Below, piece by piece: positions 2,881-21,638 of a DNA stretch of 64,000 nt. Source of the DNA: Zhongshania sp. (lineage in GTDB: Bacteria; Pseudomonadota; Gammaproteobacteria; Pseudomonadales; Spongiibacteraceae); the NCBI RefSeq assembly GCF_041584495.1, contig NZ_JBFHDY010000007.1:1231-65230 (forward strand), read 5' to 3'. Position numbers and translations under genes: made by a program. Under the pieces are notes generated by a model that saw nothing but the letters and a program-made list of their open reading frames with translations, had not been told where the DNA came from and searched no databases. Every line of letters begins with the position of its first letter. The stretch's first letter is position 1.

Positions 2881-3634
2881 TCATAATAAAAGTGCCATGC
2901 CACCCAGTACGGCAATTGAGGCTAAGCGAAAACGTAGCGTTATTGCCTCGTCCAAGAATAGTACCCCACCGAGTGCGGCAAGTCTTGGTAGGCTTAATTG
3001 AATCGTTGCGGCGTGACTCGCGGGCAGGGTGGGTAGGACCGCATACCATAATGTGTCACCCAGCCCTGAGGCCAAGGTGCTAGATGCGGCGGCATAGGCT
3101 AAGCTAAGGCTAATCACCGGCTGTGAATCACGCATAAGTAAAAAGGACGATGGCAAAGGGAGTAGCGCGCAGGGAGTGACCGGCAGTCGCGACGCTTGGT
3201 TAACGAGCGCTGCGTTCCAGCAGAGAATACGCCCCCCAGCAAACCCCGGCGGTGATCATAATAATCGCGCAGAGCAAGGGTGGCGCTTCGACACCGGCCA
3301 GTATCAGCCAAATAAGCCCAGCGCTGGCGGTAATAGTACCACTAATTTGCAGGTGACTAAGGGGTTCGCCGCGTCATAAGCCATAGCCGATCATCGTTGT
3401 TTGCACCGCACCAAACAATGCAGCGGCCGTTAGCCAGCTGCCGCCAAGGGTGTAGCGGTGAAATTGGATGAGTAACAGCATGCTGAGTACCAGTGCACCG
3501 GCAACGATGCGCACTAAGGTAAAACTAGACGCGTCGATATGGCCTGCAGCCAACGCTGCGCGGCACAGCAGTGAATTAGCCGCAAACGCCATCATGGTAA
3601 TTGGAGTAAGGGACGCTAAACGCAGGCGCGACAT
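2881..3634 (-). pseudogene. DMT/EamA family transporter, disrupted
   Basis: MMAFAANSLLCRAAL...GAVQTTMIGYGL*RGEPL has TGA in place of a Trp codon at 3374-3376. At least one frameshift pair near 3230-3150. The segment normally found between ALF and GAVQ is missing. The C-terminal LGGVLFLDEAITLR motif is in ORF 2881-3156. Confidence 0.85.
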
Positions 3635-3887
3635 TATTGTGTCCCATTGCATGAGAGTAGACGGCGTCGTTCGCGCCAGACCAACAGTTTACTGAATTCA
3701 TCGCGGGGGGTAGTTAAATTTTTAGATTAATTTGAGATGGGCACGCCGCACAGCCGCAAATTAAAGCCACGTTATAGGTGGTGATTACGTAATACTGACG
3801 CGATATGCGTTACAGTCTTCATCCTGTGTTTAATCGTTTCTATGCTGGCCGACGGCGCCCATCAATAAAAATCTCAAGGACGTGCGT

Positions 3888-4724
3888 ATGGACCGTTTAA
3901 AAGCGCTATTTATCTCAACGTGGATGAGCTTGCTCATGGTAGGCGCAGCGCGCAGTGCCTGGGCAATTTACCAGGACCCTAATGCAGTAGCATGGTATTG
4001 GGCTTTGCTATGCATGCTAACGCCCCTATCCTTTTTTGCGTGGGTGTTTATCGCTAATGTCGCTCGCACGCAAATCGCTAGCAAAGTGGTTTTAGGAGTG
4101 ACTCTGCTTACGTTGCTCGGCGCGTTGTTGTCGCCAATAATTTTTGAAACCTTGGCGTGGATACTCGGTGCAGGGCTAATAGGAACCGCTTTGTACGAGT
4201 GGTGGTACTCCAGTTTTGGTGGCAGGCACAGTGACATACTGACTGTTGGTCAAACACTGCCAAACTTAGAATTTATTAATGATGCTGGTATGCAGCTTAA
4301 ACCTCACGAACTGAATAAGCCCTTGCTCATGATTTTTTATCGCGGCAATTGGTGTCCACTGTGTATGGCGCAGATAAAAGAAATTGCCGGGCAATATCGC
4401 GTCCTGGCCGACAAAGGCGTGGAGATTCTGCTCATTAGTCCTCAGTCGCAGGGTCATACCGCCGATCTGGCTCAGCGCTTTGACGCGCCAATGCGCTTTT
4501 TGGTAGATCGAGATAGCGCGATGGCGAAACGCCTCGGCATTGCCGTCCCCAATGGCTTACCGATGGGCATGGAGGTGCTGGGCTATGATAGCGACACCGT
4601 GATGCCCACCGTCATCATGACTGACGCCACGGGTAAACTTTTGTTTGCGGATCTTACCGATAATTATCGGTTAAGACCTGAGCCGGAAACATTTCTTAAG
4701 GTGTTCTCTCAGGCGGGAATCTGA
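3888..4724 (+). CDS. Membrane-anchored peroxiredoxin-like (AhpC/TSA, redoxin) protein
   Basis: About four N-terminal hydrophobic helices, then a thioredoxin-fold domain with FYRGNWCPLC (CxxC). AAGGA RBS 7 nt before the ATG at 3888. Confidence 0.8.
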   Translation: MDRLKALFISTWMSLLMVGAARSAWAIYQDPNAVAWYWALLCMLTPLSFFAWVFIANVARTQIASKVVLGVTLLTLLGALLSPIIFETLAWILGAGLIGTALYEWWYSSFGGRHSDILTVGQTLPNLEFINDAGMQLKPHELNKPLLMIFYRGNWCPLCMAQIKEIAGQYRVLADKGVEILLISPQSQGHTADLAQRFDAPMRFLVDRDSAMAKRLGIAVPNGLPMGMEVLGYDSDTVMPTVIMTDATGKLLFADLTDNYRLRPEPETFLKVFSQAGI

Positions 4725-4749
4725 GAATACACAATTGTAGGGCGAAAGA

Positions 4750-5445
4750 TTATTCCAACGCGGCGAGCCAAGAGCGGCCCCCGAGTTTGCGTTGCTGACC
4801 AAGATTCCAATTGGCGCGCGCAATCAAATGTGGCGCTGGTGCGGCAGGATTGTACTTGCGGGGGCTTGGCAAGCTGGAGGCTAACAGTGCCGACTGCCAG
4901 TGGTTTAACTGTGACGCGTTAATGCCAAAGTGATGCCGGCTGGCGGCGCCAACACCAAACACCCCGTCGCCCCATTCGGCGATATTTAAATAAATTTCTA
5001 AAATGCGTTGCTTCGGCCAGCACAATTCGACGAGTCCTGTGAACCAAACTTCCAAGCCTTTGCGTAGCCAGCTGCGATCCGTCCACAGGTACATATTGCG
5101 GGCGACCTGCTGGCTGATGGTACTGGCGCCGCGCAAACTGCCACGCCTTTCCCGGTCGGCAAAGGCCTTTTGAATTGCCTTTATATCAAAGCCATAATGA
5201 TTGGGAAAATTCTGGTCTTCAGACACAACTGCGGCTAGTGCGGCATGGCGGGGTATTTCATTCCAGCTTAGCCACCGCTTGTCGAGGTGGTAGTGGGTGC
5301 CGCGCTGCTGCCAGCTGCGCTCTAGCATTACCATGCTAATCGGTGGGTCAATCCACCGAAAGGGCAATACTAAGGCAACACTGAACAACACCAATATCAG
5401 CAAGCTGCGCCAAAGCAGTCGCGCAAATCTGCTCTTTTTAGCCAT
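4750..5445 (-). CDS. mtgA: Monofunctional biosynthetic peptidoglycan transglycosylase
   Basis: GT51 motifs SEDQNF, GASTISQQVARNMYLW, RKGLE and IYLNIAEWGDGVFG; N-terminal TM anchor. Confidence 0.95.
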   Translation of the reverse strand: MAKKSRFARLLWRSLLILVLFSVALVLPFRWIDPPISMVMLERSWQQRGTHYHLDKRWLSWNEIPRHAALAAVVSEDQNFPNHYGFDIKAIQKAFADRERRGSLRGASTISQQVARNMYLWTDRSWLRKGLEVWFTGLVELCWPKQRILEIYLNIAEWGDGVFGVGAASRHHFGINASQLNHWQSALLASSLPSPRKYNPAAPAPHLIARANWNLGQQRKLGGRSWLAALE

Positions 5446-5589
5446 CACTTATTCCATAAAGAATTCTGCTTGCCCCATTTATACAGGGAAAGATCGGGGA
5501 TAATCTAGCGAATGCTCAGACGAATGTTTTGGATATTAGTTTCACCGTCCGTTTCCTTTCAGTGTTAAGTGGACTCTCGAACGTCAACC

Positions 5590-5736
5590 TCGCCATACCG
5601 ATGCTTGAGGCAGCTGCCGCGAGCTGTCTTGTTATACCGGCTTCCATGCAGGAATCCTCTACCTCTCTTGTCATACCGGCCCCGAGCAGGTATCCGCTGC
5701 GCCCCTCCCGTCATACCGGCCCCAGAGCCGATATCC
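5590..5736 (+). repeat. Tandem array of four degenerate CGTC/GTCAT-type REP units, 39-40 bp period
   Basis: Cores GYYATACCG start at 5592, 5631, 5670 and 5710. Best units are GTCATACCGGCCCCGAGCAGGTATCC and CGTCATACCGGCCCCAGAGCCGATATCC, with hairpin ATACCGGC..GCCGGTAT in the consensus. Confidence 0.75.
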
Positions 5737-5805
5737 ATGATTGTGGCAGTGGCGTAGTTCAATGGCGAATGGCTGCGGTATTACGTCCGGCCGGGCAAGA
5801 AAACG

Positions 5806-6531
5806 TTATTCGCCCTTCACACAAACATATACGGAGTTTGTCGATTCGCCATTCTGAAACGGATTATAAAAAGAGACCACGTGGGAAGTGACGGTAGCAA
5901 ATACTGTTTTCAATAAGGCCTCAAAGGGTTCTTCTGGGAGGTTTTGCGACCACATGGCAAATACGCCATTGGACTTAAGTTGATCGGCCATGAGCGAGAG
6001 ATTTTCGGTGGAATAAAAGCTGGCGTTGGCGGCGTTCAAGAATTCAGTAGGGGAGTGGTCAATGTCTAAGAGAATGGCGTCGAACTTCTTACCGGCATGT
6101 TGGGGGTCAAAGCTTGTGCTAGGATCCGTGGCTAGGTCGAAAAAGCTGCCGAGGACATAGCGATTTCGTATGTCGACGTTGAGTATTTTTCCCAGCGGCA
6201 CCAGCTCGTCTTTATGCCAGCCGACAACAGTCGCGAGTGCGTCGATCACTAGTAGTTCGCTAATGCGTTGGTCTTTGAGCGCTTCTACGGCGGTGTAGCC
6301 TAGCCCTAAGCCGCCTACAACCACGCTTAAATTATGGCCCTGAACGGCGGCTAAGCCAAGGCGAGATAAAGCCTCCTCAGCATCGACAAACATGCTCGAC
6401 ATGAGAAACTCATCGCCAAGCTTAACCTCATAAATGTCTCTGTCGCCAAAAGCAGGAATACGCCGTTTCCGTAGGGATATTTCTCCTAGGGGCGAGGCTT
6501 GGCTATCAATTTCTTCAAATAATAATGGCAT
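5806..6531 (-). CDS. Spermidine-synthase-like class I SAM-dependent methyltransferase
   Basis: VVVGGLGLGYT (SAM motif I), FDAILLDIDHSP and GVFAMWS. Confidence 0.85.
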   Translation of the reverse strand: MPLLFEEIDSQASPLGEISLRKRRIPAFGDRDIYEVKLGDEFLMSSMFVDAEEALSRLGLAAVQGHNLSVVVGGLGLGYTAVEALKDQRISELLVIDALATVVGWHKDELVPLGKILNVDIRNRYVLGSFFDLATDPSTSFDPQHAGKKFDAILLDIDHSPTEFLNAANASFYSTENLSLMADQLKSNGVFAMWSQNLPEEPFEALLKTVFATVTSHVVSFYNPFQNGESTNSVYVCVKGE

Positions 6532-6620
6532 GCTGTTTGTCCTAATGATCTAAGTTGCTCGCGTCGTTCATTTGACAAACGCGTGGTATTGGTAGATATC
6601 GCACGATCAGCATGGTGCCG

Positions 6621-7418
6621 CTAACGGTATTCCATTCCCGCCGAAATACGGTTAAATAAGCGCGGAAAGAAACGCTTAATTGTTGGTGCAAGCGCGCTAA
6701 TTCCTTTGCCGATGATAATTTCGTCACGGTCTTTAATCATCGCGTGAATAATCTCTTGCGCGCACTGCTCGACAGGCATGCCATTGATGATCGACTCGTC
6801 ATCTTTATTCTGGGCCTCACCATTACCATTTAATGCATTCACTGCAATATTGGTTTTAATTGAGCCTGGGCATACCGTAAGGCAATAAATACCGTGCTGT
6901 GCGGTTTCGGCACGTAAGCAATCCATAAAGCCCACTACCGCATATTTGGAGCCAGAGTAGCCGGTACGCAATTTAGAACCGACCTTGCCAGCAACGCTGC
7001 TAATGCTAACAATCATCCCTTCGTGTTGCGCAATCATTGCCGGTAACACCGCTTTAGTCATTGCCACCGTGCCGAGGTAGTTGACCTCCATTAATTGGCG
7101 ATAAACAGCTAGATCGGTATCAACAAATAGTGAGCGCTGCGAGATACCGCCGTTATTAATTAAAATATGCACAGGGCCAATGGCGCCAAGCTGCGTCTGT
7201 ACCATGTTAATCAGACTGTCGGCATCCGCTAAATCCAGCGGCACCACCCAATGTCGATCGATACCTCCGGGTAGCGATTCTGCTAATTCAGCTAAGGTCT
7301 CCTTACGGCGGGCAGACAACACCAATCTGGCGCCGCGCTGTGCAAGTTGTTTACACAGGGCCATGCCAATGCCAGAGCTAGCACCCGTGACCCAAATGGT
7401 TTTACTATCAATATCCAT
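6621..7418 (-). CDS. Short-chain dehydrogenase/reductase (DHRS7-like)
   Basis: TGASSGIG cofactor motif, NNGG, and catalytic YSGSK (YxxxK). Confidence 0.93.
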   Translation of the reverse strand: MDIDSKTIWVTGASSGIGMALCKQLAQRGARLVLSARRKETLAELAESLPGGIDRHWVVPLDLADADSLINMVQTQLGAIGPVHILINNGGISQRSLFVDTDLAVYRQLMEVNYLGTVAMTKAVLPAMIAQHEGMIVSISSVAGKVGSKLRTGYSGSKYAVVGFMDCLRAETAQHGIYCLTVCPGSIKTNIAVNALNGNGEAQNKDDESIINGMPVEQCAQEIIHAMIKDRDEIIIGKGISALAPTIKRFFPRLFNRISAGMEYR

Positions 7419-8872: not shown

Positions 8873-10321
8873 ATGACCACTAAGCAATCTCACAAAACTG
8901 CCAAGCTCGGGCTACTCGCCTTAATTATCGGCCCAGTCATGCTGGTCGTTACGCTACTCGTCCCAGCACCCGCCGGAATGAACCCCGAAGCATGGTTAGC
9001 TCTTGGTGCTGCTCTATGGATGGCGACATGGTGGGCGACAGAGGCGGTGCCAATTCCGGCGACGGCGTTATTGCCCTTAATTCTGGTGCCGGTCTTGGGT
9101 ATTGCCAAGGTTGGGGATTTGGCGGATGCCTATGCCAACGGCATTATCTTTTTATTTTTGGGTGGTTTTCTTTTGGGTTTGGCAATGCAGCGCTGGAATC
9201 TGCACCGCCGTATTGCGCTGAATATTCTACTGGCGGTCGGTCAGCAGGCTGCGCGCCAGATCGCGGGCTTTATGATCGCCACTGCGTTTTTGAGTATGTG
9301 GGTGAGTAATACCGCAACCAGTATCATGATGCTGCCAATTGGTTTGTCGGTGATTAGTTTTTTGCCTGCGGGCAATGATGGCGAGCGGCGCCGCTTTGCG
9401 GTGGCCTTGTTACTGGCCATTGCCTATAGTGCAAGCATTGGCGGTATTGCGACCTTAATCGGTACACCGCCCAATGCGATGTTGGCGGCGTATTTAAAAG
9501 ACAACCACGATATTAGCATCGGTTTTGCTCAGTGGATGATGATTGGCCTGCCGGTGGCTGTGGCTATGCTGTTGTTTACTTGGTGGTGGTTGTGTCGCAA
9601 GGGCTTTGCGGGCTTGGAAACCGCAGGCAGTCAAGATTTGCTGCGCGTAGAATTGCATCAGCTGGGACCATTGAGTGGGGCTGAGGCGCGGGTCTTGTTG
9701 ATTTTTGTGGGCACTGCGGCGGCCTGGATTTTTCGACCCCTATTAAACGATTATGTGCCAGGGGTTAGCGACACGGTGATCGCAATGGCGGCGGGCGTGT
9801 TGCTGTTTGCGGTGCGTTCCGGCGGCCCCGACTCGCAGGCCTTGCTCGACTGGGACAGCGCCCAAAAATTGCCTTGGGGGGTATTACTGTTGTTTGGCGG
9901 CGGCTTGGCCTTGGCGGTAATGATTAAAGATTCCGGTTTGGCCGAGTGGCTGGCGCAGAACTTTGCCTTGCTCCAGGCTTGGCCGTTGTTTGCGGTGGTG
10001 CTGGTGATTGTCACGGTAATTATTTTCTTAACCGAGATCACCAGTAATACCGCCACCACGGCCACCTTCTTACCGTTGTTAGGGGCCTTGGCCGTGGCGC
10101 AGTCGGTATCGCCTATGTTGTTTGTGATTCCCGCCGCGATTGCCGCGTCGTGCGCGTTTATGATGCCGGTGGCTACGCCGCCAAATGCCGTGGTGTTCGG
10201 CAGCGGTGAACTGCGCATTAACGATATGATGCACGCAGGCCTTTTAGTGAATCTATTTGGTATAGGATTGGTAAGTATTTTGGGCTATTACATTGTGCTA
10301 GCGGTGTTTATCGCTAGCTAA
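8873..10321 (+). CDS. SLC13/DASS family sodium-coupled anion symporter
   Basis: LSMWVSNTATSIMM, GGIATLIGTPPNA, EITSNTAT and FMMPVATPPNA (two SNT/PPN motifs); many TM helices. Confidence 0.93.
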   Translation: MTTKQSHKTAKLGLLALIIGPVMLVVTLLVPAPAGMNPEAWLALGAALWMATWWATEAVPIPATALLPLILVPVLGIAKVGDLADAYANGIIFLFLGGFLLGLAMQRWNLHRRIALNILLAVGQQAARQIAGFMIATAFLSMWVSNTATSIMMLPIGLSVISFLPAGNDGERRRFAVALLLAIAYSASIGGIATLIGTPPNAMLAAYLKDNHDISIGFAQWMMIGLPVAVAMLLFTWWWLCRKGFAGLETAGSQDLLRVELHQLGPLSGAEARVLLIFVGTAAAWIFRPLLNDYVPGVSDTVIAMAAGVLLFAVRSGGPDSQALLDWDSAQKLPWGVLLLFGGGLALAVMIKDSGLAEWLAQNFALLQAWPLFAVVLVIVTVIIFLTEITSNTATTATFLPLLGALAVAQSVSPMLFVIPAAIAASCAFMMPVATPPNAVVFGSGELRINDMMHAGLLVNLFGIGLVSILGYYIVLAVFIAS

Positions 10322-10524: not shown

Positions 10525-12285
10525 TCAAATATCCCAGCTCGGTGTGGTAGCTAGCTTCTGCTCGGCATTCGCGGCTACAATATTTTGCACTCCGAGATGG
10601 TGCGATAAAAACACTTGCCCGCTCAGGTGTTTTATAAACTCGGTATGGGCGAGTACATCCATCACTGGCCCTTTTACTTCAGACAAATGCAGGGTAATGC
10701 CACTGTCTTTTAAGCGTAGGTTGATAGATTCCAGTACTTCCAGTGCGCTGAGATCAATTTCATTCACGGCAGTGCACATCAATATCACGTGCTGAATACC
10801 CGGGCAGGCGTCGACTAATTCATAAACCTTGTCTTCAATAAAACCGGCATTGGCAAAGTACAGGCTTTCGTCAATGCGCAGCGACAGGATATCGCTGTGG
10901 GTAATGACTTTATGGCGATTTATATTGCGATAGTGTTCGGTGCCGGGTACTTCGCCAACCACCGCCATGTGGGGCACCGAGGTTTTGTATAGGTGCAGGG
11001 CGAGCGAGGCGAACACGCCACAGGCGACGCCAGTTTCTACCCCCATAATTAAGGTCACAACAAGTGTGGTGACCACGGCGATAAAGTCGCTGCGTGCATA
11101 AGCCCAGGATTTTTTGAGTATGGAGAAATCCACTAGCGATAAAACTGCGACGATGATGGTCGCCGCTAAAGTGGCCTTGGGTAAGTAGGCTAAATAGGGG
11201 GTGAAATACATGGCGGCGGCGGCAATGCCCACGGCGGTAAATATACCGGCCGCTGGGGTGACGGCACCGGCATCAAAATTAACCACCGAGCGCGCGAAGC
11301 CACCAGTAACCGGATAGCCGCCAGAGAATGACGCGGCAATATTGGCGGCGCCGAGACCGATCAGTTCTTGGTTTGGCACAATGCGCTGGCGGCGTTTGGC
11401 GGCCAGCGTGTGACCCACCGATACTGACTCAACAAAACCGATAATGGATATAAACACCGCTGACAACATGAGTTCACGCCAGGCGTCGTGACCGAGCTTG
11501 GGCATTTGAAAACTGGGCAAGCCGGTGGGAACCTCACCGACCAAGACGACACCCTTGCTGCCGAGGTCAAAATAGTAGGCGGCATAACTGGTGGCAATAA
11601 TGCCGAGCACGGGGCCGGTCTTCGCTAGCATGGCCGCGGCTTTGTCACTGAGCCCCGTGCGCACTAACAGCGGTTTAAGGCCGCTGCGTACCCAGAATAA
11701 AAAGATTAGCGTGGGTAAACCCACCGCCACGGTATAAAAGTTAGTATTGGCCACCGAGGCATAGAGCGAGTGCAGCAGGGCAAACAGGTTTTCGCCATGG
11801 GCATTGATGCCCAATATATATTTAAGCTGGCTAAACGCAATGATAATACCCGAGGCAGTGATGAATCCGGCAATGACCGGGTGGGATAAAAAGTTCGCTA
11901 AAAAGCCCATGCGTAGCAAGCCCATGCCGAGTAGGAATACACCCGACAAAAAGGCCAGCAATAAGGCGGCTTCGATATAACTCACACTGCCGGCACTGGC
12001 AATATGGCCAATGGCCGATGCGGTCATTAGCGAGACCACCGCCACTGGGCCCACCGACAGGGTGCGGCTAGTGCCAAAAATACCGTAGGCGACCAGTGGC
12101 AACATACTGGCGTACAAGCCCATTTGCGGTGGCAGCCCGGCGAGCAGAGCATAGGCGAGGGACTGGGGAATTAGCATGATGGTGACGATTAATGCCGCCA
12201 GCAGATCGCTAAATAGCACATCGCGGTGGTATTCGCCTGCCCAGCCCAGAATGGGAAAGTAAGATTTAAGCGTCGTTTTTTGCAC
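10525..12285 (-). CDS. sulP: SulP/SLC26 family anion transporter with C-terminal STAS domain
   Basis: IPQSLAYALLAGLPPQMGLY, VGPVAVVS, NQELIGLGAANI and GGFARSVVN; STAS domain LRIDESLYFANA. GTG start. Confidence 0.95.
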   Translation of the reverse strand: MQKTTLKSYFPILGWAGEYHRDVLFSDLLAALIVTIMLIPQSLAYALLAGLPPQMGLYASMLPLVAYGIFGTSRTLSVGPVAVVSLMTASAIGHIASAGSVSYIEAALLLAFLSGVFLLGMGLLRMGFLANFLSHPVIAGFITASGIIIAFSQLKYILGINAHGENLFALLHSLYASVANTNFYTVAVGLPTLIFLFWVRSGLKPLLVRTGLSDKAAAMLAKTGPVLGIIATSYAAYYFDLGSKGVVLVGEVPTGLPSFQMPKLGHDAWRELMLSAVFISIIGFVESVSVGHTLAAKRRQRIVPNQELIGLGAANIAASFSGGYPVTGGFARSVVNFDAGAVTPAAGIFTAVGIAAAAMYFTPYLAYLPKATLAATIIVAVLSLVDFSILKKSWAYARSDFIAVVTTLVVTLIMGVETGVACGVFASLALHLYKTSVPHMAVVGEVPGTEHYRNINRHKVITHSDILSLRIDESLYFANAGFIEDKVYELVDACPGIQHVILMCTAVNEIDLSALEVLESINLRLKDSGITLHLSEVKGPVMDVLAHTEFIKHLSGQVFLSHHLGVQNIVAANAEQKLATTPSWDI

Positions 12286-12326
12286 AGGGATTCCTTGGCC
12301 TTATGTCGCTGTTTAGCATAGCTAAT

Positions 12327-13220
12327 TTATAGGGTATCTAAGGGCACTTTGAGGTACACGGTGCCATTGCTGTCGGCTTCGGGCAAATGTCCGGCGCGCA
12401 TATTGATTTGTAGCGCGGGAATGATGAGCTTGGGCATGCCTAAGGTGGCGTCGCGTTGCTCTCGCATGGCGACAAAGTCGTCTTCGCTTATGCCGCGGTG
12501 CACGTGAATATTATTGTCGCGCTGTTGTTTAACGGTGGTCTCAAATTCCACGTCGCGACCATTGGGCATATAGTCGTGGCACATAAACAAACGCAGTTCA
12601 TCGGGTAGTGACAGTAAGCGCTGAATTGATTGGTAGAGGACCCTGGCGTCGCCGCCGGGGAAGTCGGCGCGGGCGCTGCCGCCGTCGGGCATGAACAAGG
12701 TGTCGCCCACAAAGGCAGCATTGCCCATAATATGGGTCATGCACGCCGGCGTGTGACCAGGGGTGTGCAATGCGTGGCACTGCAAATTGCCCACGGTGTA
12801 TTGGTCGCCGTCTTTAAAGAGTTGATCAAACTGAGAGCCGTCGCGCTGGAACTGATTGCCTTCGTTAAAAATTTTACCGAAGGTTTCTTGTACCGTAATA
12901 ATGTGTTCGCCAATACCGATTTTGCCGCCAATCTGGCCTTGGATATAGGGCGCTGCCGACAAATGATCGGCGTGCACGTGGGTTTCAATAATCCACTGTA
13001 AATCGAGTTGTTGTTCGCGAATATACTGAATAATTTTATCTGCGCCTTGTAAGCCTAAATGTCCTGCGGCGTAGTCTATTTCCATAACCGAATCGATAAT
13101 TGCGCAGGCCTTGGATGTTGGGTCTTGCACAACATAGGAAAAGGTATTGGTGGCTTCGTCAAAGAAGGGAATGACGGCCGGTATTTGTTTTAGATTGGGT
13201 GTAAACGCAATGGTGTTCAT
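12327..13220 (-). CDS. MBL-fold persulfide dioxygenase (type II, Blh/ETHE1-like)
   Basis: ETHVHADHLS, TPGHTPAC, GDTLFMPDGGSARADFPGG, CHDY and LPEADSNGTVYLKVP. Confidence 0.9.
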   Translation of the reverse strand: MNTIAFTPNLKQIPAVIPFFDEATNTFSYVVQDPTSKACAIIDSVMEIDYAAGHLGLQGADKIIQYIREQQLDLQWIIETHVHADHLSAAPYIQGQIGGKIGIGEHIITVQETFGKIFNEGNQFQRDGSQFDQLFKDGDQYTVGNLQCHALHTPGHTPACMTHIMGNAAFVGDTLFMPDGGSARADFPGGDARVLYQSIQRLLSLPDELRLFMCHDYMPNGRDVEFETTVKQQRDNNIHVHRGISEDDFVAMREQRDATLGMPKLIIPALQINMRAGHLPEADSNGTVYLKVPLDTL

Positions 13221-13280
13221 TAGGCATCTCCGGTTGTAACGCGTCGCGGATTGTTTATGGTCATCATTATTGTCAAGACA

Positions 13281-14273
13281 CTATTCATAGGAAAGCGCGG
13301 TGGCTTTGCCATGAAAAATGCGGTACATAAAAAAGGTATAGAACAAAATCGCGGGCAGGGTGATAACAACACCGACTAAGGTAAATTGCAGCGACTTAAC
13401 CGAGGCGGCGGCGTCCCAAATTGTCATGTGACCAATAATAATGTCGGGAAAAATACTGTAAGCCAAGCCCAGGCTCGCCATAAGGCAAATTACCGCGGTG
13501 GCGGCGTAAATTAGCCAGCCGTAGCCGTGGCGAAGAATATTGGGTTTGCCCAACAAAATAAAAATTGCCACATAACAGATAATACAGCTTAGCGGGATGG
13601 GCAGCAGTAAGATGGTGTAGGGGAGGGTAAACCATTTCGCGGCAATAGCTGGGCTGACCATGGGCGTGGCCACCGAGACCATAAATAGGCCAAGCCCCAT
13701 GGGCCAGATTGCCATGCGGCCCCAGCTGATGGCCTTATCTAATAATGCGCCTTCGGTTTTCATTAGCAGCCAGCCGCAGCCTAATATTAAATACAGGGCG
13801 GGTAAGGTCATGGCAATGAGCGCCGAAAATAACAGGCTGGTGATGTTGTCTTGCAAGCCGGTGATGTAGGCGCCGAGCATCCAGCCTTGGGCTGTTGAGG
13901 CAATTAAGGACCCAGCAAAAAAAGCCTTATTCCAACGGCCGCGATGGTGGTCGCCCGCTTTTACCCGCAGGTCAAAGGCCACCCCGCGCAGCATTAAACC
14001 CATGAGCATGATGGTGACGGGCAAATACAAGCCGCTAAGAATAATGCCGTGGGCAAGCGGGAATGCGATTAATAAAATGCCAACACCCAGTACAATCCAA
14101 GTTTCATTGGCGTCCCAGAAGGGGCCAATAGAGGCGATCATCATGTCTTTTTCGTCTTCTTCCGCCAGTGGCAGCAATAAGCCCACGCCGAGATCGTAGC
14201 CGTCTAGCATCACGTAAATGAGCAGCGCCAAGCCCATAATGCCCATATAAATAATTGGTAGCCAATATTCCAT
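13281..14273 (-). CDS. cydB: Cytochrome bd ubiquinol oxidase subunit II (CIO-type)
   Basis: YVMLDGYDLGVG, IGPFWDANETWIVL and LMLRGVAFDLR. Confidence 0.96.
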   Translation of the reverse strand: MEYWLPIIYMGIMGLALLIYVMLDGYDLGVGLLLPLAEEDEKDMMIASIGPFWDANETWIVLGVGILLIAFPLAHGIILSGLYLPVTIMLMGLMLRGVAFDLRVKAGDHHRGRWNKAFFAGSLIASTAQGWMLGAYITGLQDNITSLLFSALIAMTLPALYLILGCGWLLMKTEGALLDKAISWGRMAIWPMGLGLFMVSVATPMVSPAIAAKWFTLPYTILLLPIPLSCIICYVAIFILLGKPNILRHGYGWLIYAATAVICLMASLGLAYSIFPDIIIGHMTIWDAAASVKSLQFTLVGVVITLPAILFYTFFMYRIFHGKATALSYE

Positions 14274-14276
14274 TGT

Positions 14277-15647
14277 TCAGTGCCCCCGGTTCTGTGGCGA
14301 TGTATCGCCAGCGCTGTTGCGGCTCGGTAAATTCATCATTCCTAAGGAGGCCGCAGGCTTGTTCGACATGTGGCGCAGAGCGGCAATATAAGAGCCCAAC
14401 AGAAACACATAAAGCGCGACATAGCCAAATAAGGTACCGGTGAGGGTGGCGCTGCTGTGATCGGCCGCGACGTCGTTCACTGTTAAAACGCCGGTGACAA
14501 TCCACGGCTGGCGGCCAATTTCAGTTACATACCAGCCGGCCAGAACTGCGATCCAGCCAGAGAATGCCATAGCCGATAAAACATGGAGCATCGGCTTGTT
14601 GGGCTGATGATGGCCGCGAAATTGCCAAGCACAGATCCACGCCGTGAGTAGCATTAGACCACCCATAGCGAGCATTACGCGAAAGGACCAAAATACCATG
14701 GCAACCGGTGGATGCTCGCCTTTAAAGTCGTTCAAACCCTGCACTTTGCCATGGGGGTCATGGGTTAAAATTAGGCTGCCAGCGTAGGGTACCTCTACGG
14801 CAAACCGGTTGCTGCGACTGGCTTCGTCCGGCAGGGCGAATACCGTAAAAGGCACTGCTTGGTCGGTGTCCCAAATAGCCTCCATTGCAGCGATTTTGGC
14901 GGGCTGATGTTCTAAGGTATTAAGGCCGTGAAGATCGCCGATAAAAATTTGCAAAGGCGTTAATACGGCGGCAATGATGACACCGGTTTTCATTACTTTC
15001 CACGTAGCTGGGCCATCAACGTTTTTCAGTGCCCGCCAGGCACTGACCCCCGCCACTAAAAAGGTGCTGGTGAGTACCGAGGCAACTAGCATGTGGAAGA
15101 AGCGATAAGGGAAGGAGGGGTTGAAAATCACTGCTATCCAGCTGTCGACCACCACCACGCCCTCTTCTAAATGATAGCCGCTTGGGGTTTGCATCCAAGA
15201 ATTTAGGCTGAGGATCCAGAATGCCGACAAGGTAGTGCCGAAGGCGACTAAAAAGGTGCTAATTAAATGTAGGCGGTTGGATACACGGTCTTTGCCAAAC
15301 AGCATAATGCCGAGGAAGGAGGCTTCTAAAAAGAAGGCCGTCAGCACTTCGTAACCGAGCAGCGGGCCTGCGACGTTCCCGGCCTTTTCCATAAACCCGG
15401 GCCAATTGGTGCCAAACTGAAAGCTCATGGTAATACCAGACACCACGCCCATCGCAAAGGTGAGGGCGAAGACCTTCACCCAAAATAAGTAGGCGTATTC
15501 CCAAGCCTTGTCGCCGGTTAGCGTGTAGCGCAAACGAAAAAATAGCAGTATCCACGCAAGACCAATAGATATGGCGGGAAAGAGAATATGAAAACTCATA
15601 TTGGTGGCAAATTGAATGCGTGCCAGTACAAAGGGGTCGAAATTCAT
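14277..15647 (-). CDS. cydA: Cytochrome bd ubiquinol oxidase subunit I (short Q-loop, CIO-type)
   Basis: ARIQFA...FHILFP, GITMSFQFGTNW, YEVLTAFFLEA, NSWMQTP, QPAKIAAMEA and GWYVTEIGRQPW. At 456 aa it has a short Q-loop; no cydX ORF seen downstream. Confidence 0.96.
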   Translation of the reverse strand: MNFDPFVLARIQFATNMSFHILFPAISIGLAWILLFFRLRYTLTGDKAWEYAYLFWVKVFALTFAMGVVSGITMSFQFGTNWPGFMEKAGNVAGPLLGYEVLTAFFLEASFLGIMLFGKDRVSNRLHLISTFLVAFGTTLSAFWILSLNSWMQTPSGYHLEEGVVVVDSWIAVIFNPSFPYRFFHMLVASVLTSTFLVAGVSAWRALKNVDGPATWKVMKTGVIIAAVLTPLQIFIGDLHGLNTLEHQPAKIAAMEAIWDTDQAVPFTVFALPDEASRSNRFAVEVPYAGSLILTHDPHGKVQGLNDFKGEHPPVAMVFWSFRVMLAMGGLMLLTAWICAWQFRGHHQPNKPMLHVLSAMAFSGWIAVLAGWYVTEIGRQPWIVTGVLTVNDVAADHSSATLTGTLFGYVALYVFLLGSYIAALRHMSNKPAASLGMMNLPSRNSAGDTSPQNRGH

Positions 15648-15720
15648 GCCTGCGCTCCCAAAAGAGATGCTATTACCAAGATTGGCGAGTGGATTAAGAT
15701 TATGGCCCTGTGTGCCTAAA

Positions 15721-15737
15721 CAGCAATAGCTGTGCCA
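15721..15737 (-). promoter_or_regulatory. Sigma54 (RpoN) -24/-12 promoter for the cydA-cydB-pdo-sulP operon
   Basis: Minus strand TGGCAC-AGCTA-TTGCTG matches consensus TGGCAC-N5-TTGCW with exact GG/GC spacing. It lies ~75 bp upstream of the cydA ATG, next to a sigma54 activator gene. Confidence 0.88.
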
Positions 15738-15843
15738 CGGCGAGCATGCCGCACTTAGCTGTACTTAAGTTGCTGTTTTATAAGTAGTATCTAATTTTCT
15801 TTGAGTGGCTTGTCAAAAATAGGCTCGATAAGCACGCGCTTTG

Positions 15844-15881
15844 TTGCCATTATTGGCAAACTATTTTGACAAATTTGGCAA
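15844..15881. promoter_or_regulatory. Two tandem palindromic upstream activator sites (putative bEBP binding sites)
   Basis: TTGCCA-TTAT-TGGCAA (15844-15859, perfect) and TTGACA-AATT-TGGCAA (15866-15881, one mismatch), 22 bp apart and roughly -140/-160 from the predicted start site. Confidence 0.7.
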
Positions 15882-15885
15882 GATC

Positions 15886-17202
15886 ATGCAGTTGATTGCA
15901 AGTGATACTGATAAAGGCTTGGCGCGGATGCTGGACGGCTACAATGATCCCGCGATTTTAGTGTCGGCAAATTATGAAATTTTGGCGACAAATGAGCGCT
16001 ACCGCGAAACCTTCGGCGAGATTGAAGTTGATCGTGGCGCCCATTGCTATGAAGTTTCCCACGGCTACCGGGTGCCCTGTGACCAAGCCGGTGAAAGCTG
16101 TCCGCTGCTTGCCTGTAAAAGCTCTGGTGCCAAAGAGCGCGTGCTGCATATTCATGGTACACCCCGGGGCAAGGAGCATGTTGATGTTGAAATGTTGCCG
16201 ATTCGCGGCGACGACGGTGAGTTACGGTATTTTGTCGAAATTTTAAGACCCGTTACGATTGCCAGTGCCGAATTTAGCACCCAGCAAATGGTGGGGCGCA
16301 GCCCGGCGTTTAATAGCTTGGTTGATATGATTAACCTCGTTGCCAGACGCGATACCTCGGTGCTTCTTATGGGTGAGTCGGGCACGGGCAAGGAGTTGGC
16401 CGCTAAGGCGATTCACGAGGCCAGCCCTCGTCATAAGCATCTTATGGTGACGGTGGAGTGCGCCGGTCTCACCGAAACCTTATTCGAGAGCGAGTTATTT
16501 GGTCACGTTAAAGGCGCATTTACCGGCGCGGTCAATAATAAACCAGGCTTGTTGGAGAATGCTGAAGGCGGCACCCTCTTTTTGGACGAAATCGGCGATG
16601 TGCCACTGGGTATGCAGGTTAAATTGCTGCGCTTGATCGAAACGGGCAGCTATCGCGCGGTGGGCAGTACCCAGCTTAAGCGCGCCCAGTTCCGTTTAAT
16701 TTGTGCCACCCACAAAAATTTAAAAGAACAGCTTGCCCGTGGGGCGTTCCGAGAAGATCTCTATTATCGCATTAACGCCTTTCCCATTGTGTTGCCGCCA
16801 CTGCGCGAGCGCCGCGAAGACGTGGGTATTATTGCTAAATCCATTCTCGGTAAACTCAGTCCAGACGAAAATTATCGTTTAACCGACTCTGGCATTAAAC
16901 TGCTCAGTGGCTGCCATTTTGCGGGTAATGTGCGGGAATTACGCAATGTGTTAGAGCGGGCAACAATTTTTGCGCACTCGAATATTATTGATGTGAAAAT
17001 TCTCGGGCAGTGTCTGTTGGATGCAGCGCCATTGCAGGCTGTTGATCAGACCGGGGAGTGGCCCGATTTAAAAACCCAGCAAGCGCGTTATCTCAATGAT
17101 TTACTTGAGTATTGTCACGGCGATAAAAGTCAGGCGGCAAAAATAGCGGGCATTAGTTTGCGATCATTTTACCGCAAGCTGGGTTTGCTGAAAAAGGAAT
17201 GA
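15886..17202 (+). CDS. Sigma54-dependent enhancer-binding protein, FisR-like (Cys-containing PAS + AAA+ + Fis HTH)
   Basis: Walker A GESGTGKE, intact GAFTGA, Walker [16 protein letters not shown] and a C-terminal Fis-type HTH. N-terminal [21 protein letters not shown]. Confidence 0.92.
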
Positions 17203-17691
17203 CGCTCAGTGTTGTAAGTATTTTACAGGGATGGCAGGGTAATGATGACTTTATTAAAATACTGTTCTTTGGCGGAGCGAGTCTACTAACGCCCAATGCA
17301 GTCGATTTGCTGGATACCACCACAGTCATTCAGTTAGTTGAGCCCATAAGCGCGATAACTGAGGGCGCAGCACTTGAGATTGATGTGAGCCAGTATATTC
17401 GCGCTGACAACGACGAAGAGGCGGCACGGGTGTTCCCAGAGTTCTGTCAACGCTATGTTGCACTCTAAGTTTGGGGTGTCGGTGTATTTAGACAAGGTTG
17501 CGGGCAGGGCCGTAGGCGGCAAAAAATCATTGCGTTTAAGCGCATCGAGCGGAATGGCGACAGGCGTTAATTTTAATCGACTCAAACTACAGGTGTGTAA
17601 AGAATTCCGTCATACCGCACTGACTTGGTATAACTATGACAAACCCGCATTTTTGCCCTAAAGTTAAGAAAAGACACAGAGGTGTGTGTTC

Positions 17692-19400: not shown

Positions 19401-21638
<2,238 letters not shown>

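Follow-up and report, generated by a model that had tools for sequence, protein, structure and literature searches.

The locus examined here, located within a 64 kb stretch of DNA from a marine Zhongshania bacterium (the window), is probably a FisR-type, sigma54-dependent operon which responds to sulfane sulfur and from which the SQR gene has since been deleted. The sulfur sensor and the operon are both of a known kind; what appears to be new is the presence of cydAB inside a FisR/sigma54 operon, together with the SQR-less form of that operon in Zhongshania. The locus works like part of the SQR-PDO pathway, in an organism which is without the complete pathway.

Organisation of the locus and its encoded proteins

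Open reading frame calls for the window placed cydA, cydB, pdo and sulP on the minus strand, separated by 3, 60 and 41 bp, and the regulator gene (fisR) on the plus strand, divergent from the other four (Table 1). An earlier note on this DNA had reported the same co-orientation and spacing, along with a divergent sigma54 enhancer-binding regulator; the coordinates agree, and the opposite strand was found to encode an activator with PAS, AAA+ and HTH domains. A terminator-like site was searched for in the 60-bp and 41-bp gaps and none was found. All open reading frames of the operon are intact, and the genome carries a single rpoN gene.

Table 1. Coordinates of genes and predicted regulatory features in the window.
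Feature	Position	Strand	Basis or remark
sulP	10525..12285	-	TIGR00815, PF00916, PF01740; last operon gene
pdo-sulP spacer, 41 bp	12286..12326	-	SQR deletion site by synteny with relatives
pdo	12327..13220	-	NF040641 dioxygenase half; metallo-beta-lactamase fold
cydB, cytochrome bd oxidase subunit II	13281..14273	-	PF02322 (Cyt_bd_oxida_II), 257 bits
cydA, cytochrome bd oxidase subunit I, short Q-loop type	14277..15647	-	PF01654 (Cyt_bd_oxida_I), 528 bits
sigma54 -24/-12 promoter TGGCACAGCTATTGC	15723..15737	-	consensus match and conservation
conserved AT-rich block TTATAAAACAGCAACTTAA	15763..15790	-	conserved alignment columns, genus
upstream activator site 2 TTGCCAATAATGGCAA (predicted)	15844..15859	-	perfect palindrome TTGCCA-N4-TGGCAA
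upstream activator site 1 TTGCCAAATTTGTCAA (predicted)	15866..15881	-	imperfect palindrome
fisR	15886..17202 (longer frame from 15841)	+	PAS_4, Sigma54_activat and HTH_8

CydA aligned along its whole length with 5doq, the short-loop enzyme of Geobacillus, but only in two pieces, with approximately 60 residues skipped, with E. coli bd-I/II; equivalents of His19 and His186 were aligned to E. coli bd-II. CydAB is predicted to be a cytochrome bd quinol oxidase of the short Q-loop (CIO-like) type, and a genome search found a single copy of cydA, making this the sole bd oxidase in a genome which also encodes three heme-copper oxidase genes. The pdo product matched Lactamase_B, scored 392 bits against the NF040641 (Blh) model in its dioxygenase half, carries the HxHxDH motif (ETHVHADH) and shares 58% identity with the C. 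metallidurans PDO encoded beside sqr. Its matches among known structures were 9g8t (E 9e-116) and 4ysk/4ysl (7e-110), of which 4ysk, labelled in the structure search only as 'Beta-lactamase domain protein', is an entry we take to be the Pseudomonas putida PDO. This protein is predicted to be a type II persulfide dioxygenase (ETHE1-like MBL). SulP scored 432.6 bits against TIGR00815 (cut-off 380.45), contains Sulfate_transp (PF00916) and C-terminal STAS (PF01740) domains and is predicted to be a SulP/SLC26 anion transporter; we infer that it may export oxyanions. Its gene follows sqr and ends the operon, a conserved arrangement in Zhongshania, Porticoccus, Kineobactrum, Exilibacterium and Aestuariirhabdus.

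The regulator has a complete architecture, consisting of an N-terminal sensor, an AAA+ domain with GAFTGA in the translation and a C-terminal Fis-type HTH (Pfam/NCBIfam matches to PAS_4, Sigma54_activat at 216 bits, AAA_lid_14 and HTH_8). The start is likely the ATG at 15886, giving a protein of 438 amino acids; homologues are mostly ~431-446 aa in length, and the longer frame from the TTG at 15841 would engulf the upstream activator sites. Aligned along its whole length, the protein shares 48% identity with the regulator divergent from pdo-sqr in C. metallidurans CH34, the Cupriavidus locus used for comparison and standing for that of C. pinatubonensis, and its C-X10-C-X6-C aligns with C53, C64 and C71 of the C. 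metallidurans protein. All three sensor cysteines were 100% conserved among 119 homologues, while a fourth Cys was not, and invariant His residues are located beside them (SHG, HIH). A sigma54 promoter and pdo lie opposite the regulator gene; sqr, absent here, is present at the locus in most relatives. By sequence, the regulator is a FisR orthologue with a FisR-type sensor, and the FisR-type identity proposed for it in the earlier note is supported by the Cys triad and by orthology to the Cupriavidus pdo-sqr regulator. In Cupriavidus the FisR Cys triad reportedly senses reactive sulfur species via disulfide and tetrasulfide links (PMC9774590), but sensing may also take other routes, because the FisR of A. 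baumannii works without those cysteines (PMC7315123).

The signal could instead be NO, oxygen/redox, cyanide or a metal bound by Cys/His, in which case the locus would be a respiratory-stress module with pdo and sulP as passengers. The invariant sensor His residues could bind metal, bd oxidases are described in reviews as also protecting against NO and cyanide, and approximately 10 metagenomic FisR-like regulators, as well as L155, were without sulfide genes in the 2-8 kb available upstream. We nevertheless consider a non-sulfur signal unlikely, as the great majority of readable loci with this sensor type adjoin pdo (usually with DUF442-SQR), in Cupriavidus reactive sulfur species are reportedly detected by this triad, and pdo is still under purifying selection after SQR loss.

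Promoter and upstream activator sites

The sequence TGGCACAGCTATTGC was found to be the sole zero-mismatch occurrence of TGGCAC-N5-TTGC in the window, where one-mismatch matches occurred at chance level, and it sits 75 bp upstream of the cydA ATG. In 11 of 13 related loci an equivalent sigma54 box precedes the first operon gene by 62-173 bp, irrespective of whether that gene is cydA or pdo; Porticoccus has a second, weaker candidate nearer to the operon. Two predicted activator sites lie further upstream. Site 1 (TTGCCAAATTTGTCAA) was near-invariant across 7 Zhongshania intergenic regions, and site 2 (TTGCCAATAATGGCAA), which starts 22 bp from the start of site 1 and lies approximately 115 bp upstream of the -24 element, was conserved within the genus in the same set. 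The pattern TGYCA-N4-TGRCA also precedes the promoter in Porticoccus, Pseudohongiella, Kineobactrum and Exilibacterium, and across the 4.0 Mb genome the site 2 palindrome is the only one of its kind that precedes a sigma54-like box by 50-250 bp. Promoter and activator sites were intact in G000, G012 and G002. The consensus sigma54 promoter recognised in the earlier note was thus recovered as an exact -24/-12 box, conserved across genera along with the two palindromes. As the activator sites precede the fisR ATG by only 5-42 bp, they could equally serve fisR autoregulation.

The conserved AT-rich block (TTATAAAACAGCAACTTAA) lies between the activator sites and the promoter. The IHF consensus is WATCAA-N4-TTR, which is fitted by the sequence of one relative at this block (AATCAATAAGTTA), and the block may be an IHF bending site.

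Ancestral position and loss of SQR

Synteny placed a DUF442-SQR gene between pdo and sulP in three related loci (L001, L004 and L002), and the same position was found in 19/27 genus loci and in 45/45 readable metagenome loci, among which the SQR-less form did not occur (0/45). The gene encodes 534-557 aa in the relatives and is of the same DUF442-SQR fusion type as the SQR of C. pinatubonensis (PMC9163753), and the order cydAB-pdo-(DUF442-SQR)-sulP is that of most Zhongshania species, Porticoccus and many marine metagenome contigs. At the window locus the SQR position is reduced to the 41-bp pdo-sulP spacer, and no SQR remnant was found in the pdo-sulP junction sequences. The SQR-less form was seen only in Zhongshania, where it occurs in some species of the genus, and on the PDO tree the SQR-less operons fall into two clades; SQR has been lost at least twice within Zhongshania. 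As read from synteny, the absence of SQR is secondary, a clean deletion from the ancestral operon.

A tblastn search of the genome with three DUF442-SQR proteins gave nothing better than E ~1, and the SQR model NF049943 matched only the Rossmann N-termini of four other flavoproteins, which look like NirB, NDH-2, a ferredoxin-type reductase and TrxR when their sequences are read, rather than by family search. No SoxB, full-length FCSD or full-length SQR homologue was found in the genome. An SQR could have been missed, either in an assembly gap (the assembly is fragmented, with 336 contigs) or as a non-homologous sulfide oxidase, but this is highly improbable given the estimated completeness of 99.2%, the contiguous pdo-sulP junction within the window and the searches above; in addition, a close relative with a PDO 99% identical (G012) has the same junction in a complete, single-contig genome, in which the SQR search gave no match. 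The earlier note had described the module as being without SQR and had suggested checking for sqr elsewhere, and no SQR homologue was found in the 99%-complete assembly.

The same note had placed the oxidase in the slot usually held by SQR, which did not stand, as relatives carry both and the SQR slot is the pdo-sulP spacer. A functional replacement of SQR by the bd oxidase, in line with an operon which has the oxidase and no SQR and with the persistence of the SQR-less form in several species, is also very unlikely. Oxidase and SQR coexist in one operon in most relatives, the SQR position is not that of the oxidase, the SQR-less state is derived and rare, and we know of no bd oxidase that oxidises sulfide to sulfane sulfur.

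Following SQR loss the other genes could have become useless and started to drift, leaving a decaying remnant; no cydB was found in the 1.5 kb upstream of pdo in G020 and G017. Between two SQR-less species, however, dN/dS was 0.03-0.10 for all five remaining genes (dS 0.27-0.45), and it was ~0.05 in comparison with G022 at dS ~1.5. The five remaining genes are under strong purifying selection, which, with the intact reading frames, promoter and activator sites, largely refutes decay and leaves it scarcely credible.

cydAB was present within FisR-linked clusters in 26 of 57 readable metagenomic loci (~46%). In the loci of some relatives cydAB follows sulP, and the Pseudohongiella locus is without sulP. 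The synteny search for fisR-cydAB-pdo-sulP proposed in the earlier note showed cydAB to be a recurrent member of FisR-linked clusters, and a literature search for cydAB in such clusters found no describing paper, in agreement with that note, in which the architecture was not known to be characterised.

Proposed mechanism and relation to known systems

It is proposed that FisR binds the two palindromes (TTGCCA-N4-TGRCAA) approximately 115-140 bp upstream of the -24/-12 promoter and that persulfide or polysulfide would cross-link the three sensor cysteines, whereupon FisR would activate RpoN-RNA polymerase and cydA-cydB-pdo-sulP would presumably be transcribed as one unit. The sulfide-insensitive bd quinol oxidase would sustain respiration while the three heme-copper oxidases are poisoned, PDO would convert glutathione persulfide to sulfite, and the SulP anion carrier would probably move the sulfur oxyanion product, its presumed substrate. 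In the ancestral operon, which most congeners and other marine gammaproteobacteria still carry, SQR would transfer electrons from sulfide to the quinone pool, to be drained by the bd oxidase expressed along with it. A genome without SQR would make no enzymatic sulfane sulfur from H2S, and with SQR lost the inducer and PDO substrate would therefore come from outside or from endogenous sulfurtransferases; an outside source of polysulfide could, speculatively, be neighbours or abiotic formation. The inducer identity and physiological role given here are those which we infer for the operon. pdo-only bacteria do oxidise polysulfide made by sqr-bearing neighbours (PMC5702731), and induction of cydAB by sulfide and resistance of bd oxidases to it are established (PMC7315123, PMC13467558).

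Kineobactrum has a cydAB-sulP cluster without a sigma54 box and, because this cluster stands apart from fisR, SulP may be tied to the oxidase and not to sulfite export. A self-sufficient, SQR-independent polysulfide-response unit made up of bd oxidase, PDO and SulP, with SulP linked to the oxidase in this way, is a doubtful but conceivable extension, to which the separate cydAB-sulP of Kineobactrum and the selection on the trio after two independent SQR losses both point.

Among the closest known systems is the fisR/pdo-sqr sulfide-oxidation operon of C. pinatubonensis JMP134 (Li et al. 2017, as cited in PMC9774590 and PMC7315123; for SQRCp and PDOCp see PMC9163753). In both, a sigma54 promoter is paired with a divergently encoded sigma54 activator that carries the same sensor cysteine triad, and the PDO is of type II; the SQR of Zhongshania relatives is the same DUF442-SQR fusion, whereas the Zhongshania operon starts with cydAB, ends with SulP and has lost SQR from operon and genome. 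In A. baumannii, too, sulfide switches on a persulfide dioxygenase, an exporter and a bd oxidase, and FisR with a sigma54 promoter drives sulfur genes; however, the FisR regulon there is pdo1-sqr-tauE-hom (A1S_1707-1711), the sulfide-induced cydAB (A1S_1433-1434) lies outside it, under a sulfide regulator which that work did not identify, the exporter is TauE in place of SulP, and FisR is without the Cupriavidus cysteines (PMC7315123). Sinorhizobium meliloti 1021 and Agrobacterium tumefaciens (Blh/BigR) likewise have PDO with no SQR in the genome and oxidise supplied polysulfide but not sulfide by themselves; their operons contain no oxidase and are controlled by ArsR-type BigR repressors, in contrast to the FisR activator and bd oxidase found here (PMC5702731). 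Most similar are the cydAB-pdo-(DUF442-SQR)-sulP loci of other Zhongshania, Porticoccus, Pseudohongiella and marine metagenome contigs, which have the same regulator, promoter, activator sites and order, with proteins 65-99% identical, and differ in having kept a DUF442-SQR gene of 534-574 aa between pdo and sulP.

In E. coli, P. aeruginosa, A. baumannii and M. tuberculosis, bd-type oxidases are induced by sulfide; to our knowledge, the regulator that joins a sulfide or sulfane-sulfur signal to expression of the oxidase has for the most part not been defined. The presence of cydAB inside a FisR/sigma54 operon would provide direct wiring, with a sulfane-sulfur sensor controlling both sulfide-proof respiration and persulfide removal; if true, control of cydAB by FisR in roughly half of the marine FisR loci would make FisR the first defined regulator to join sulfane-sulfur sensing directly to the choice of terminal oxidase. 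The Zhongshania sister species, with identical operons with and without SQR, would serve as a natural experiment which separates the input of SQR (making of the inducer and feeding of the quinone pool) from the roles of the oxidase, PDO and SulP, and comparing them can reveal how the common pdo-only marine heterotrophs perceive sulfide stress.

Organisation of the operon and identity of its regulator

The locus was found to comprise four co-oriented genes, cydA, cydB, pdo (persulfide dioxygenase) and sulP, with intergenic gaps of 3, 60 and 41 bp, preceded by a sigma54 box and divergent from a gene for a sigma54 activator (fisR); ORF coordinates, family matches and the promoter match (see table) confirmed this arrangement as it had been described in an earlier note on this DNA. 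No terminator-like site was identified in either the 60-bp or the 41-bp gap, and promoter-like and terminator-like counts across the operon region were at shuffle level. CydA and CydB constitute the sole bd oxidase of this Zhongshania genome; CydA is of the short Q-loop type, which is the only basis for the putative 'CIO-type' label.

Features of the cydA-fisR region (coordinates are those of the window)
Feature	Position	Strand	Remarks
cydA	15647-14277	minus	matches cytochrome bd subunit family (Pfam/NCBIfam)
cydB	14273-13281	minus	matches cytochrome bd subunit family (Pfam/NCBIfam)
pdo	13220-12327	minus	MBL protein; 392 bits on dioxygenase half of Blh model
sulP	12285-10525	minus	above TIGR00815 cut-off, plus STAS domain
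fisR	15841/15886-17202	plus, divergent from cydA	sigma54 activator; PAS_4, Sigma54_activat, AAA-lid, HTH_8
-24/-12 box	15737-15723	minus	TGGCACAGCTATTGC
Palindrome 1 (16 bp)	15881-15866		TTGCCAAATTTGTCAA; conserved in seven Zhongshania species
Palindrome 2 (16 bp)	15859-15844		TTGCCAATAATGGCAA; conserved in seven Zhongshania species
DASS-family symporter gene	8873-10321	plus	convergent with sulP
Catalase-peroxidase-like gene	19410-21638	plus	two peroxidase-domain stretches
89-aa ORF	17199-17468		3' of fisR; discarded

A tblastn search of plasmids and chromids with the sensor domain of the regulator gave a match on the megaplasmid of C. metallidurans CH34, where a homologue of the regulator is encoded divergently from type II pdo, sqr and MFS genes, a layout that has also been described for the Cupriavidus fisR locus. 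Over 440 residues the Zhongshania and CH34 proteins share 48% identity, and the three aligned cysteines (positions 53, 64 and 71, numbered from the Cupriavidus methionine) are invariant in an alignment of 119 homologues, in which a fourth cysteine of the Zhongshania protein is not invariant. In the Zhongshania protein, numbered from ATG 15886, the three are C54, C65 and C72. FisR is reported to sense reactive sulfur by means of three conserved cysteines, which form disulfide and tetrasulfide links with one another (PMC9774590). The proposal of a Cys-PAS sigma54 regulator of the FisR type was borne out by the CH34 orthology and the invariant cysteine triad and, judged by its sequence, the protein is a FisR orthologue. 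Regulators with the Cys-triad sensor were also observed at five further metagenome and genome loci (L155, L161, L166, L181 and L193), where the 8 kb upstream are devoid of pdo, sqr and cyd genes.

The Na+-coupled anion symporter of the DASS family has a homologue near sulP, at variable distance, in several other Zhongshania species. The catalase-peroxidase-like gene, a candidate KatG by reading, lies 2.2 kb beyond fisR, and the other flanking genes (SDR, DUF3703, SpoU methylase, SpoIIAA-like STAS protein and methyltransferase) look unrelated. The 89-aa ORF was conserved in the closest species only and had no family match.

Promoter and candidate activator sites

The -24/-12 box, which precedes the ATG of cydA by 75 bp, was the single exact match to TGGCAC-N5-TTGC in the 64-kb window. 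An alignment of this intergenic region from seven Zhongshania species showed conservation of the box, of an AT-rich block, which in one Zhongshania species we take to fit the IHF consensus, and of two palindromes, with starts 22 bp apart, that precede the -24 element by about 115-140 bp. The palindrome core (TGYCA-N4-TGRCA) was also found ahead of the sigma54 box in Porticoccus, Pseudohongiella, Kineobactrum and Exilibacterium, while the -24/-12 box was present in 11 of 13 related loci, cydA-first or pdo-first alike. A palindrome of this kind followed at 50-250 bp by a sigma54-like box occurs at one place in the entire 4.0 Mb genome, the cydA/fisR locus, and the genome carries a single copy of rpoN.

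The longest regulator ORF opens at TTG 15841, and its extra 5' part spans both palindromes. As homologues are mostly about 431-446 aa in length, the likely start of fisR is ATG 15886, giving a predicted protein of 438 aa; this start would place the palindromes 5-42 bp upstream of fisR, making autoregulation through these candidate sites plausible.

Absence of SQR and its loss within Zhongshania

The genome (4.01 Mb, 99.2% complete) contained no homologue of SQR (sulfide:quinone oxidoreductase), of FCSD (an alternative sulfide-oxidising enzyme) or of DUF442, and SoxB was absent. The best E value obtained by tblastn of this genome with three SQR fusions was about 1, and matches to the SQR model were confined to the N-terminal FAD-binding regions of four flavoproteins, a pattern also seen in all 14 control genomes; by reading of their sequences these four look like NirB, NDH-2, a ferredoxin-type reductase and a thioredoxin reductase. 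The statement that the module is without SQR therefore holds genome-wide.

The further claim, that the oxidase occupies the slot of SQR, was contradicted by relatives which carry cydAB and SQR together. The order is cydA-cydB-pdo-X-sulP in Zhongshania aquimaris and Porticoccus, and pdo-X-sulP-cydA-cydB in a Porticoccaceae MAG, where X is a protein of 534-557 aa in which an N-terminal sulfurtransferase domain (DUF442/BLH_phosphatase) is joined to a C-terminal SQR domain, a fusion of the type of the C. pinatubonensis SQR (PMC9163753). As SQR lies between pdo and sulP in these relatives, its slot here is the 41-bp pdo-sulP spacer, in which no SQR coding remnant was recognisable by eye.

Across 26 Zhongshania genomes, 27 pdo loci were surveyed. 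DUF442-SQR was found 3' of pdo in 19 loci, 16 of them also with cydAB in front; sulP was directly 3' of pdo in seven (G000, G012, G002, G022, G018, G020 and G017), and one (G001) keeps the DUF442 part alone. At this last locus (L141) the DUF442 sulfurtransferase part lies between pdo and sulP at 9534-9923, the SQR domain being deleted. On the PDO tree the SQR-less loci fall into two clades with good support, and SQR has therefore been lost at least twice; G001 groups with the second of these clades, and its state may be an intermediate or an alternative outcome of the loss. The absence of SQR is no assembly artefact, since G012, a single-contig complete genome with a PDO 99% identical to that of the window, has the same pdo-sulP junction. 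Comparison of the window genome with SQR-less G002 gave dN/dS values of 0.03-0.10 for cydA, cydB, pdo, sulP and fisR (dS 0.27-0.45), and comparison with G022 a value of about 0.05 (dS about 1.5). These low values show that the SQR-less operon is kept by maintaining selection and is not decaying.

Linkage of cydAB to FisR and its proposed role

Genomes were searched for fisR-cydAB-pdo-sulP synteny, as the earlier note had suggested, and the order was found to recur in Zhongshania and Porticoccus, there with SQR in most. The genes divergent from fisR are cydAB-pdo-SQR in Pseudohongiella and pdo-DUF442SQR-sulP, without cydAB, in Kineobactrum, Exilibacterium and Aestuariirhabdus; the Cupriavidus order is pdo-sqr-MFS. 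A first contig scan with the whole regulator returned mostly generic AAA+ activators and only about 6 true orthologues, while a metagenome scan with an alignment of the sensor domain returned 80 loci, the first divergent gene being readable in 57. Oxidase genes were included in 26 of these 57 loci (about 46%), with cydA first in 18 and cydAB after sulP in eight; in the remaining readable loci pdo was first and no cyd genes were seen. The gene 3' of pdo was DUF442-SQR in all 45 metagenome loci where it was visible, and no SQR-less form of the operon was seen outside Zhongshania among the metagenome loci and named genomes examined.

In Kineobactrum a separate cydA-cydB-sulP cluster (L237, G061:C1:1036000-1048000, about 3025-7113) was observed far from the divergent fisR and pdo-sqr-sulP genes. 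Its cydAB is single copy, with a CydA 74% identical to the window CydA, and is followed by a second sulP, the product of which is 68.5% identical to the window SulP. No sigma54 box or FisR-type palindrome was found upstream of the unlinked cydAB of Kineobactrum or Exilibacterium; control of the oxidase by FisR is therefore supported solely where the genes are linked. The position of the Kineobactrum cluster away from fisR, with no FisR-type sites, suggests that SulP may have an association of its own with the bd oxidase.

Outside the window, the Zhongshania genome has three heme-copper oxidase (COX1-family) genes (contigs C19, C90 and C2), which by length and sequence reading look like A-type (aa3 or bo3-like) oxidases. 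No cbb3-type CcoN was evident on reading the 336-contig assembly and, if there is none, the bd oxidase of the FisR-linked operon may be the only high-affinity oxidase. A 459-aa frame (C25:11809-13053) combining a weakly PDO-like MBL domain (E 6e-8) with two rhodanese domains was also observed, and is a candidate for a second, CstB/PRF-like persulfide dioxygenase-sulfurtransferase.

From family knowledge and synteny we infer that sulfane sulfur would cross-link the FisR cysteines and that FisR, on the two candidate palindromes, would activate RpoN-polymerase at the -24/-12 promoter, with IHF possibly bending the DNA between the candidate FisR sites and the promoter. The cydAB-pdo-sulP genes would then be transcribed; the bd oxidase would sustain quinol oxidation while the three heme-copper oxidases were inhibited by sulfide, PDO would remove glutathione persulfide and SulP would probably deal with the oxyanion product. 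In the operon's ancestral form, SQR would have passed electrons from sulfide to quinone, and the bd oxidase expressed together with it would have re-oxidised the reduced quinone. A link between SQR and bd oxidase was predicted in A. baumannii by Walsh et al., where cydAB is induced by sulfide from a locus of its own, for which no regulator was identified (PMC7315123); cydAB is away from the FisR-regulated genes in A. baumannii, whereas in Zhongshania it is within the FisR-linked operon. In having PDO without SQR, this Zhongshania sp. resembles pdo-only bacteria, which are unable to oxidise sulfide and instead consume polysulfide that their neighbours produce (PMC5702731); possible sources of endogenous persulfide are a 288-aa tandem-rhodanese protein, encoded outside the operon, and the 459-aa MBL-rhodanese fusion.

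The components of the operon, the class of regulator and the induction of bd oxidases by sulfide are all already known, and the FisR-cydAB operon is no new principle. The literature searched contained no description of a Zhongshania sulfide system and none that places cydAB within a FisR/sigma54 operon. The cydAB-containing FisR operon with SQR is widespread in marine gammaproteobacteria, and that of the window genome is a rarer derivative from which SQR has been lost. FisR-linked cydAB offers a defined candidate regulator for sulfide-triggered oxidase switching, and the SQR-plus and SQR-minus Zhongshania species provide a natural pair for experiments.
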